A DNA stretch of 64,000 nt. Origin: Myxococcota bacterium (GTDB lineage: Bacteria > Myxococcota_A > UBA9042 > PHBI01 > JAWLBL01). Location of the stretch: positions 77,147-141,146 of the forward strand of contig JAWLBL010000024.1 of NCBI GenBank assembly GCA_041687695.1. Direction: 5' to 3'. The position numbers and the translations under genes are program-made. Below, in pieces: positions 60,632 through 64,000 of the stretch. How positions within the stretch are numbered: position 1 is the stretch's first letter; each line of letters starts with the position of its first letter. A model generated the notes under the pieces. That model was given only the letters and a program-made list of their open reading frames with translations, was not told the origin of the DNA and ran no database searches.

Positions 60632-61168
60632 ATGGGCGAGCGGGACGGACAGGACGCGCGCGGGCGCGCTGAGGGTGGGGCAGGGCAGGGGCCGTCGGCG
60701 GTCCCGCTGACCCCCGGGTCGGCGCCGTTTCGCAACCAGCTGGCGCTGCCCGAGGCGGCGCCCGGGTTCGGCGACGAGATGCGGCGCGAGGTGCAGGCCT
60801 CGGCGATGAAGCGGCTCGAGGCGCTCGACCGGGTCTACCAGCAGCTGCAGGCCGAGGCGCGCGGCGTGGTCGGCGCGGCGCGGCGCGACATGGCCCTGCA
60901 CGCGGTGCCGCTCAACGGGACCAAGCTCCGCGGGCGCGACTACCACCTGTTCGCGCGGCCGAGCGGCGAGCGGTTCTTCTCGCTGCTCGAGGCGGCCGAC
61001 TACCGCGGCATCGACCCGGCGATTCGCTTCGTGGCCAGCTACCGCTTGAACCACGACGGCAGCTGGACGCGCCTCGACGCCGACGACGAGGCCGACAAGC
61101 TGGCGCACGCCCCGCCCGGCGGCGCCCCCGTCACCCCCGACCTCGACGACGGAGCGCCTCGCCCATGA
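60632..61168 (+). CDS. DUF2452-like hypothetical protein
   Basis: Coiled segment followed by GRDYHLF..FFSLL..FVASYRLNHDGSW. Confidence 0.6.
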   Translation: MGERDGQDARGRAEGGAGQGPSAVPLTPGSAPFRNQLALPEAAPGFGDEMRREVQASAMKRLEALDRVYQQLQAEARGVVGAARRDMALHAVPLNGTKLRGRDYHLFARPSGERFFSLLEAADYRGIDPAIRFVASYRLNHDGSWTRLDADDEADKLAHAPPGGAPVTPDLDDGAPRP

Positions 61169-62043
61169 GCCGCCTCGAGAAGAAGCTGCTGAACAACGTC
61201 TCGCGCGCCTGCCGCGACTTCGATCTGCTGGCGCCGGGCGACCGGGTCATGGTCTGCCTGTCGGGCGGCAAGGACTCGTACGCGATGCTGCACCTGCTGC
61301 GCGAGGTGCAGCGGCACGTCCCGTTCGAGCTGTCGCTGGTCGCGGTCAACCTGGACCAGGGGCAGCCGGGCTTCCCCAAGGACGTCCTGCCGACCTGGCT
61401 CGCCGCCAACGGCTACGAGTTCGAGATCGTCGAGCGCGACACCTACTCGGTGGTGGTCGACAAGGTCCCCGAGGGCAAGACCTACTGCTCGCTGTGCTCG
61501 CGGCTGCGGCGCGGCATCCTGTACGACACGGCCGAGCGGCTGGGCGCGACCAAGATAGCGCTGGGCCACCACCGCGACGACATCACGCAGACGCTGCTGC
61601 TCAACATCCTGTACTCGGGGCAGCTCAAGGCGATGCCGCCCAAGCTGCGCTCGGACGACGGGCGCAACACGGTCATCCGCCCGCTGGCCTACTGCGCCGA
61701 GGAGGACATCGCCGCCTTCGCGGCCGAGCAGGCCTTCCCCATCATCCCCTGCGACCTGTGCGGCTCGCAGGACAACCTGCACCGAAAGCGCGTCAAGCGG
61801 CTCATCGACCAGCTGCACGCCGAGAACCCGGTGGTCAAGGGCAACCTGATGGCGGCCCTGATGAACGTGCGGCCCTCGCACCTACTCGACAGGCAGCTGT
61901 GGGAGCGGTGCGGCATCGATCTGGTCGGCCAGGACGAGGCGCTGGCCGCGCTCGAGGGCGACGGCGGCTGCGGCGATCCGGCGCCGGCCGGGCCGGTGGC
62001 GGTCGAGACGCTGCGTCTGGGTCGTCCGCGCGTCGAGCCCTGA
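61165..62043 (+). CDS. ttcA: tRNA 2-thiocytidine(32) synthetase
   Basis: SGGKDS PP-loop, CSLCSRLRRG, GHHRDD, MPPKL, CDLCGSQ. Confidence 0.95.
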   Translation: MSRLEKKLLNNVSRACRDFDLLAPGDRVMVCLSGGKDSYAMLHLLREVQRHVPFELSLVAVNLDQGQPGFPKDVLPTWLAANGYEFEIVERDTYSVVVDKVPEGKTYCSLCSRLRRGILYDTAERLGATKIALGHHRDDITQTLLLNILYSGQLKAMPPKLRSDDGRNTVIRPLAYCAEEDIAAFAAEQAFPIIPCDLCGSQDNLHRKRVKRLIDQLHAENPVVKGNLMAALMNVRPSHLLDRQLWERCGIDLVGQDEALAALEGDGGCGDPAPAGPVAVETLRLGRPRVEP

Positions 62044-62049
62044 AGCCGG

Positions 62050-62925
62050 CTACTCAGTGAAGTCGTCGGGCAGGTCCGGCGGCAGGTGGAAGCCGTTCCA
62101 GGGCGTCAGCTTGTCGTGGGCGGGCATGGGCAGCAGCGGCTGCTTCTGCAGCGAGGCCGCGCCGTCGACGCGCAGGGTGGCGCCGCTGACGTAGGCGGCG
62201 GCCGGGCTCAGCAGGAACACCACGGCGGCCGAGACCTCGCTCTCGGTGCCGCCGCGCGAGGACGGGTTCTTGCGGATGACGTCGGCGGCCATCTTGCGGA
62301 CGGAGTCCGGGTAGTTCTTGAAGCCGCTCGACAGGATGAAGCCGGGCGCGACGGCGTTGACGCGGACGCCGGCCGAGGCCCACTCGATGGCCAGGGTCTG
62401 GGTCAGGTTGACGACGCCGGCGCGGGCGGCGCCGGTGTGGGCCATGCCCGGGAAGCCGTTCCACATGTCGGCCACGATGTTGACGATGGCGCCCCCGGAG
62501 CGGCTCATCGCGTGCTTGAAGGCGGCCTGGGTGACGAACCAGGTGCCGTTCAGGTTGGTGTCGACCACCGCGCGCCAGCCCTTGGGGCGGATGAGGGCGG
62601 CGGGCGAGGCGAACTGGCCGCCGGCGTTGTTGACCAGCAGATCGAGGCGGCCGTGACGCTGGGCCAGCTCGCCGATGGCGGCGTCGACGGCCTCGTCCTC
62701 GCGGATGTTGAGGATGAGCGTCTCGGCGCGGCCGCCGGACCGCTCGATCTCCGCGGCGGTCGTGGCCAGGGGCTCGGGCCGGCGCCCGCCCAGGACGACG
62801 GTGGCGCCGAGGCGCGCCAGCTCGTGGGCGATGCAGCGCCCGATGCCGGTGCCGCCGCCGGTGACCAGCGCCACCTGCCCGGCGAAGAGGCCGTCACGGA
62901 ACACGGAGTGGAATTGGTCGGACAT
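62050..62925 (-). CDS. SDR oxidoreductase (trans-2-enoyl-CoA reductase/AtuB-like)
   Basis: TGGGTGIG, NNAGGQF, HTGAARAG. Confidence 0.9.
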   Translation of the reverse strand: MSDQFHSVFRDGLFAGQVALVTGGGTGIGRCIAHELARLGATVVLGGRRPEPLATTAAEIERSGGRAETLILNIREDEAVDAAIGELAQRHGRLDLLVNNAGGQFASPAALIRPKGWRAVVDTNLNGTWFVTQAAFKHAMSRSGGAIVNIVADMWNGFPGMAHTGAARAGVVNLTQTLAIEWASAGVRVNAVAPGFILSSGFKNYPDSVRKMAADVIRKNPSSRGGTESEVSAAVVFLLSPAAAYVSGATLRVDGAASLQKQPLLPMPAHDKLTPWNGFHLPPDLPDDFTE

Positions 62926-63047
62926 CGGTCGGCTCCGGGTCGGGGTGCGGGACGTGGATAGCGCAGCGCACGCGGCGCAACAAGCGTCGGCTCGGTCGAC
63001 CGCCACTCCCCCGACGGTCCGGTCGGTGCTACCTTCGCGCCCCGAGG

Positions 63048-63287
63048 AGGCTGTAGTGAATAATGGGATTTGGCGGATCCGAGCCGAGGTTGGAGCAGAT
63101 CCGGTTCCGGGAGACCGAGGTGAACCGGGCGGTTCACCGGCTCCCTTCGGTCGCCGGTTCTTCTGGCCCTGTGGGCCAGCACGGCCGCGCTTCGCACGGC
63201 CGCAGCGTCTCCCGGGGCCGGAGCTGCCCAACACGAAGCGGGGCTCGGGGCCGCGGGCCCCGTGAATCAGCTCATTCACTACAGCCT
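63048..63287 (+). ncRNA. Candidate structured ncRNA (alternative: MITE)
   Basis: Perfect 14-bp terminal inverted repeat plus nested long stems with G-U pairs on the + strand. Confidence 0.5.
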
Positions 63288-63312
63288 GCTAGCCCCAGCC
63301 GAACGAGGACGG

Positions 63313-64000
63313 ATGGACACGCTCGACATCCCAGGCGCCCCGAACCACGAGCTGACGCGCTCGCCCGCCGCGCTCGCGGTCGGCCGGCTGGCCCGGACCT
63401 CGGGCCTGTTCATGGCCCACTTCGAGCACCGCGTGCAGCTCGAGCTGCCCGAGGCCTGGGTCCCGGAGGGGCGGCCCGATCTGGGCGTGTCCGAAGGCTG
63501 GCGCGGCGGCGTCCTGCCCGAGAGCAAGTATCACGCCTTCCGCCACGATCTGCTGGTCGGCAGCTTCAACCCGCCGCACCGCGCCAAGTGGACCGCCCAC
63601 GAGCTGTGCCACGGGCTGGTCGGCTTCGCCTGGCGCCCCGGCGCCCCGCTGCTGTTCCACGCGCTGGCCGCCCGGCTGGCCGAGGCGCTGCCCGTCGCCT
63701 TGTGGTACTTCTTCGACGAGGCCGGCCTCGCGCGCTGCCGCGACCACGCCGGCCAGGGGCCGCTGTGGGGCGACTTCTGCGCCGACTGCGAGGCCGCCGC
63801 CAGCGACGGGGCGGTGGGCGACGCGTCCGACCCCCGCTGGATCGTCGAGGGCCGGGCCTTTCTGCAGCGCGAGCTGACCGCCGTCACCCGCTCGCGCCGC
63901 CTCGGCCGCCCCATCTCGCACCGCCTGGCCACCCTCGACCTCGCCAGCGACGGCCTCGCCTACGCGGCGGCTCACGCCGGCCGCCTGGCCTCCCCCGAGA
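63313..64000 (+). CDS. Hypothetical HExxH protein, truncated by the window edge (absent from the ORF track)
   Basis: ATG 63313 after GAGGA; open to the window end (MDTLDIPGAPNHELTRS...KWTAHELCHGLVGF...AEALP...CADC). Confidence 0.78.
   Translation, partial: MDTLDIPGAPNHELTRSPAALAVGRLARTSGLFMAHFEHRVQLELPEAWVPEGRPDLGVSEGWRGGVLPESKYHAFRHDLLVGSFNPPHRAKWTAHELCHGLVGFAWRPGAPLLFHALAARLAEALPVALWYFFDEAGLARCRDHAGQGPLWGDFCADCEAAASDGAVGDASDPRWIVEGRAFLQRELTAVTRSRRLGRPISHRLATLDLASDGLAYAAAHAGRLASPE

Follow-up and report, generated by a model that had tools for sequence, protein, structure and literature searches.

A strongly folded intergenic element in a Myxococcota genome is a MITE of the IS1182 family

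A window of 64,000 nucleotides from the genome of an uncultured Myxococcota bacterium contains some 240 bases, between two divergent genes, that fold into a long rod. What kind of element are they? A preliminary description made from the letters alone took them for a standalone 6S-like RNA, a switchable 5′ leader of the downstream gene, which encodes a HExxH-motif protein, or a MITE. We examined the copies of this stretch, its ends, its fold and the corresponding sites in related genomes.

A dispersed repeat between two divergent genes

The element lies between a short-chain dehydrogenase/reductase (SDR) gene and the HExxH gene, 24 nt ahead of the start codon of the latter and 11 nt behind an extended -10-like word (Table 1). 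Elsewhere in the window, 61165-62043 is ttcA (tRNA 2-thiocytidine synthetase; NF007972, 410 bits), which overlaps the upstream DUF2452 gene, and at positions 13-283 palindromic repeats rich in GC form a cluster that resembles repeats found at many contig ends.

BLAST of the element against its own genome (G000) gave 18 clusters, the wide dispersal expected of a MITE. A profile built from the copies and run with nhmmer found 14 full-length copies at E < 1e-37, each at a separate locus, and a half copy on contig C39; a worn 218-nt relative lies on contig C4. Aligning the copies set the boundaries of the element at 63047-63288 (242 nt). The repeat first described at 63048-63287 is present, and 63048-61 is indeed the exact reverse complement of 63274-87, but the real terminal inverted repeats are 17 bp long rather than 14 bp. 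Over 12 copies, 98% of their cells were paired. The element is gene-less, and its lengths across copies (164-242 nt) are below the size of a transposase gene.

Table 1. Features of the element and its surroundings (window positions; a dot in the strand column marks a feature without strand)
Feature	Positions	Strand	Basis or remark
SDR gene, divergent	62050..62925	-	PF13561, E 5e-49
Extended -10-like word TGCTACCTT	63027..63035	+	outside the element; 0 sites in sigma-70 scan
Left flank CGAG, putative worn CTAG-type target duplication	63043..63046	.	flank comparison
Whole MITE, 242-nt form, IS1182-type, non-autonomous	63047..63288	.	1 of 14 near-full copies
Left terminal inverted repeat, 17 bp, GAGGCTGTAGTGAATAA	63047..63063	+	13/15 identical to both contig-break IS ends
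Inner rod, 5′ arm, common to all size classes	63089..63115	+	compensatory pairs, alignment columns 45/184 and 64/166
Apex hairpin, GAACC-N4-GGTTC core	63119..63138	.	also in related elements of genomes G010 and G011; AAACC for GAACC in G012
Optional 63-nt cassette, three short hairpins	63136..63198	-	4/14 copies; loops GAA, ACA, GAA on -; one tandem G-A
Inner rod, 3′ arm	63207..63232	+	pairs with 63089-63115 in predicted fold
Remodelled 3′ arm of 242-nt form, net +15 nt	63233..63263	+	contains hairpin 63246-63262
Right terminal inverted repeat	63272..63288	-	2 mismatches to left repeat in this copy
Right flank CTAG, putative target duplication	63289..63292	.	sequence
HExxH-motif protein gene	63313..64000	+	no Pfam/NCBIfam family in first 229 aa; about 540 aa in genome, runs off window

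The copies fall into size classes of 164 nt (nine copies), 227 nt (two) and 242 nt (two, including the studied copy), with a single worn copy of 178 nt. These classes differ by the 63-nt three-hairpin cassette and by the remodelled 3′ arm, and eight of the 164-nt copies differ from one another at 2-13 sites. As a free element the cassette had one apparent lone copy, on C4, which proved to sit inside the worn 218-nt MITE; loose motif scans for it elsewhere in the genome returned mostly chance matches. Most copies have an open frame on each strand. With a rough gene caller, 13 of the 14 copies lie outside called genes; they are oriented both ways relative to their neighbours, and several abut a stop codon.

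The remaining copy (C6:168119-168282, flanks CGAG and CGAA) contains no stop codon and lies in frame within a gene for a 516-aa AtoE-type short-chain fatty acid transporter (PF02667; C6:167390-168940, that is L025:783-2333), where it adds 56 residues to a loop. Seven homologous loci were tried, and the six full-length AtoE homologues that they gave (458-473 aa) all aligned without the segment. In 12 of the 17 other genomes of the order, transporter matches break around residues 245-300.

No target-site duplication had been seen at the studied copy. We found that its two flanks appear to form a worn duplication of the CTAG type. Among the 14 copies, CTAG is exact at 11 of the 28 flanks; the two flanks are identical in four copies and one base apart in five. 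Flanks are unequal in 10 of the 14 copies, more than the divergence of the interiors predicts. CTAG has a density of 0.175 per kb in this genome, 19% of the Markov expectation, and we infer that the flanks may be worn because CTAG decays quickly. Since flanks are unequal in most copies and no empty site was found at base level, the 4-bp duplication is putative.

The corresponding sites in relatives bear directly on the two RNA readings. Homologues of the HExxH gene occur in 34 of the 107 genomes of the class, G000 included, and the gene is kept in all 18 genomes of the order that were searched, often divergent to an SDR gene. Upstream of the 19 non-self homologue loci, neither the element's ends nor an nhmmer match was found (0/19). 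Eleven of these loci keep the SDR gene upstream, and in 10 of them it is 190-300 nt closer than here. Because the element is absent from homologous sites, this locus does not have it as a conserved leader or small RNA. A riboswitch or attenuator that evolved to serve the HExxH gene would fit the close spacing to the start codon and the -10-like word, and the competing pairings on which switching would depend do exist (63113-120 with 63145-152 at 7/8 positions; 63122-128 with 63154-160 at 7/7). However, these alternatives stem from the optional cassette, which is missing in 10 of the 14 copies; a 98% identical copy lies between unrelated genes at C12:232117-232358; and the ribosome-binding word at 63305-09 is outside the rod. 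With all 19 homologue loci empty, we regard a leader of this kind as extremely unlikely.

Ends shared with insertion sequences

Besides the MITE copies, the assembly itself offers a candidate partner. Eleven contig ends carry CTAG followed by GAGCCTGTAG(C/G)GAAT, which is identical to the MITE ends at 13 of 15 positions. Five are of the left type (C5, C27, C28, C36, C52) and six of the right type (C2, C17, C38, C40, C47, C50), and each comprises about 95 nt. We infer that they belong to a multicopy insertion sequence (IS) that was collapsed in assembly, and the intact CTAG beside all 11 suggests a recent burst. Beyond the terminal repeats, any similarity of the MITE arms to these IS ends is weak (p 0.018, 0.098, 0.22 and 0.96), and triloop hairpins are few in seven IS ends. 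At the contig ends C7, C14, C16, C17, C20, C21 and C32 we noted a second unassembled multicopy element, whose ends start with ATGACC after CTAG, together with several other collapsed IS-like ends.

The exact end pattern was present in 5 of the 18 genomes of the order, compared with none for a reversed control. Short matches of about 30 nt also occurred in genomes G013 and G023. Across GTDB genomes it was found in at least 112 stretches, from myxobacteria, Acidobacteriota, Gammaproteobacteria and Longimicrobiales. Among the stretches listed, L101 and L177 are complete ISs that contain a transposase frame, and we counted 43 short elements that have a second end of this kind at their other side, although these are not independent, many coming from a few genomes. 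L101, complete at 1,707 bp, is bounded by CTAG on both sides and has ends of the MITE type. Its 493-aa protein scores 347 bits on NF033551 (IS1182 transposase; cut-off 270) and contains the domains DUF772, DDE_Tnp_1 and DDE_Tnp_1_6. Furthermore, 5 of 30 loci found with NF033551 carry CTAG-GAG..GT at both ends. Some stretches with the end pattern have a more complex build: L114, L136, L158, L161 and L190 are composite elements with an internal third end, in which units of 72-97 nt are nested in units of 165-329 nt, and L147 and L202 are elements of about 430 nt with both ends and apparent decayed transposase remnants among GTGCTC repeats. The last two are possible intermediates between IS and MITE.

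In this assembly, searches for an IS5/IS1182-type transposase with PF05598, PF01609, NF033551 and the L101 protein gave no match, and 32 residues translated from the right IS end did not align to the L101 protein. The assembly holds no more than about 95 nt from either IS end, and it is thus by its ends that the local partner is assigned to a family. The MITE shares ends of the GAG(C/G)C(C/T)GT type and CTAG on both sides with IS1182-family ISs (NF033551, for example L101); unlike them, it has no transposase, and its foldback interior is missing from the IS ends. Together, the dispersed copies and the occurrence of the same inverted repeat around a transposase gene bear out the last option of the preliminary description: the 240-base folded stretch is an IS1182-family MITE, ordinary mobile DNA and not a new RNA gene.

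We are confident about the outline of how it spreads: most likely, an IS1182 DDE transposase binds both ends in trans and inserts the MITE at CTAG with a 4-bp duplication. The enzyme would most likely be supplied by the multicopy IS whose ends stand at the 11 contig breaks. After binding the two MITE ends, it would mobilise the element and integrate it at CTAG or a closely similar site, where a cut staggered by 4 bp would give the duplication. Gain or loss of whole hairpin cassettes would produce the size classes, and the rod is long because its two arms are imperfect inverted copies. The studied copy landed in the spacer of a conserved divergent pair, downstream of a possible -10 and ahead of the HExxH gene's ribosome-binding site. 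In this position it may be co-transcribed with that gene as an inserted 5′ leader, and it may affect this neighbour. The extended -10-like word is present as first described; it lies outside the element and is probably the host promoter for the HExxH gene, although the sigma-70 scan does not score it. A promoter and terminator scan at the element itself found none.

Could another enzyme move the element? Y1_Tnp has 11 matches in the genome, and GTAG is present inside each element end. Both would fit a Y1 (RAYT-type) enzyme, a single-strand transposase, acting on a REPIN-type palindrome that has this GTAG as its REP tag. An end-like word, ATTCACTACAGCCG, is found just upstream of a Y1 gene on contig C47, and the element contains GNA-type triloop hairpins, which are typical of single-stranded DNA substrates. 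However, the element ends are longer than GTAG and match CTAG-flanked IS1182 ends, the word on C47 adjoins an IS end at a contig break, and the DNA around the 11 Y1 genes, read by eye, carries other repeats, the MITE not among them. Movement by a Y1 enzyme is thus very unlikely. The beginning of C47 (1-200) carries the IS end, CTAG and a lone MITE-end-like word, directly upstream of the RAYT-type transposase gene. Several of the 11 Y1 matches (L032-L039 and three more places) have tandem palindromic repeats of their own on their flanks, and some look truncated or frameshifted.

Fold, cassettes and strand preference

An IS1182-family MITE with so strong a fold raises the question of what the fold reflects. 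In the studied copy, the predicted fold was stronger than all 200 shuffled controls, both for the + strand (z -6.3) and for the - strand (z -6.5), so the fold is real, but it is not strand-specific. The two strands fold about equally (-147.6 versus -146.5 kcal/mol), and the fold is not confined to the + strand. Among the individual parts, the pairing of 63089-115 with 63207-232, including two T-G pairs on the + strand, forms in the predicted fold as described. The segments 63073-85 and 63242-54 are complementary at 11 of 13 positions, but local hairpins are preferred there. Of the three apex hairpins, those at 63119-138 and 63163-179 are perfect, whereas 63182-202 reads better on the - strand. 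The sequence indicates that 63139-155 and 63182-202 both favour the - strand, with tandem G-A, T-G and GAA loops there versus U-C, C-A and TTC on the other.

The 164-nt form, in contrast, folds unequally on its two strands (-124 versus -105). The cassette appears to account for the difference. It carries GAA/GGA/GCA/AAA-type triloops and tandem G-A on one strand, which in genomes G010 and G014 is the G-T-rich strand; its last stem closes on flanking bases up to 63202. Sequence reading indicates that in this genome its orientation relative to the rod is flipped compared with G010 and G014, and hence the studied copy folds equally on both strands. Triloops of the GNA/TNC type occur in 14 of 30 triloop hairpins, against 11% genome-wide, a count made up mostly of repeats of one cassette, most distant families having no such triloops. 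Related MITEs of G010 (L015:1354-1643 and L041:1505-1793) contain the 63-nt cassette twice, beside the apex and inside an arm. GGGG-N-CCCC hairpins like that at 63246-63262 recur in other repeats of this genome.

We found that 97.4% of cells pair over 12 of the 14 copies, with double-sided changes at four pairs (11 cells, 0/500 shuffles; 59/500 by the pairs measure). Seven sequences from four genomes showed double-sided changes at 21 of 60 pairs on one strand. These compensatory changes, the strong fold and the better consensus energy of the + strand (-83.5 versus -65.7 kcal/mol) are what one would look for in a standalone structured non-coding RNA gene, a 6S-like rod repeated by chance, which had been the leading proposal. 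However, double-sided changes were equally many on the opposite strand (20/56), a pattern that any inverted repeat should show; repair between the arms of an inverted repeat can produce changes of this type. Covariation is present, then, but it does not separate an RNA from a DNA foldback element. In addition, the element is not syntenic, and its 14 copies have transposon ends. Although 6S RNA (RF00013) is similar in rod shape and size, the element does not match its model, and a 6S match over the cut-off (48 bits, cut-off 46.4) lies on another contig, at C6:268078-268262. Rfam gave no match at the gathering score over the whole window and, in E-value mode at the element, only two chance matches (E 1.2 and 2.4). 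Multicopy, missing at the same site in relatives and with a 6S match elsewhere in the genome, the element has next to no chance of being such an RNA gene.

One property of the MITE is not explained by simple DDE transposition. Over five related families, G-T mismatches in the arms outnumber A-C mismatches by 27 to 3 (5:0, 10:0, 1:2, 4:1 and 7:0), counted on one representative per family, oriented by best alignment. Among the copies of this genome, derived changes run 10:3 in the same direction (p 0.046). The G-T tallies are not independent of one another, and it was from the + strand that the structure was derived. Such an excess would result from selection on the folded strand, as RNA or as DNA, and equally from deamination of a strand that lies exposed. 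Length gives no general rule: together with the 4-bp flank, all intact forms of G000, G010, G011 and G012 keep the reading frame, but across all families no more than 10 of the 22 lengths do so. No clear rule was found for the helical phase of element lengths either.

From the G-T mismatches and the cassettes of DNA-style mini-hairpins, capable of flipping and bearing GNA triloops and tandem G-A, we derive a speculative proposal that we ourselves hold to be rather doubtful. These IS1182-ended MITEs would be polar, one strand being selected to fold as single-stranded DNA, which would imply that they spread or are maintained through a single-stranded step; as lengths in this lineage keep the frame, copies would be able to enter proteins as peptides. 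Our literature search found no description of a single-stranded step for a DDE-type MITE.

Relation to known elements and significance

Among described elements, MITEPye1 of Paracoccus yeei comes closest. It is reported as 159 bp long, with 18-bp repeats like IS1182 ends, 4-bp direct repeats and a long stem-loop, mostly intergenic, in 1-3 copies and said to lack frames (PMC11578231); we compared the two by description. Both are gene-less, with a core of about 160 bp, IS1182-like repeats of 17-18 bp, a mostly intergenic location and a long stem-loop; the 4-bp direct repeats of MITEPye1 have a putative counterpart in the flanks here. In contrast to MITEPye1 as described there, the present family has at least 14 copies, three size classes and optional hairpin cassettes, and it has an open frame per strand in most copies and one in-frame gene insertion. 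Within the IS1182 family, ISPse1 is given as 1,653 bp with 16/16 IR and 4-bp DR (PMC3281130), whereas IS1272 is described as inserting at inverted repeats without duplication, a different targeting mode (PMC5678879).

The in-frame transporter copy resembles the Rickettsia palindromic elements, palindromes of about 150 bp found in frame in proteins. These are described as lying in genes nearly half the time (PMC10969869), unlike our MITE, for which this is 1 copy in 14. The same review notes that prokaryotic MITEs commonly show stem-loops of high stability, direct repeats that are worn, and fusions in frame with genes. Our literature search found no paper on this MITE family in myxobacteria.

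These results remove a false non-coding RNA candidate and illustrate that a strong fold together with covariation can come from a foldback transposon. Of wider interest is the one-strand fold that such elements keep: if it reflects a single-stranded step, it would bear on how IS1182-family elements move. For the organism, the analysis provides one case of a MITE that has lengthened a membrane transporter by a 56-residue loop, and it adds a MITE family for an uncultured lineage.
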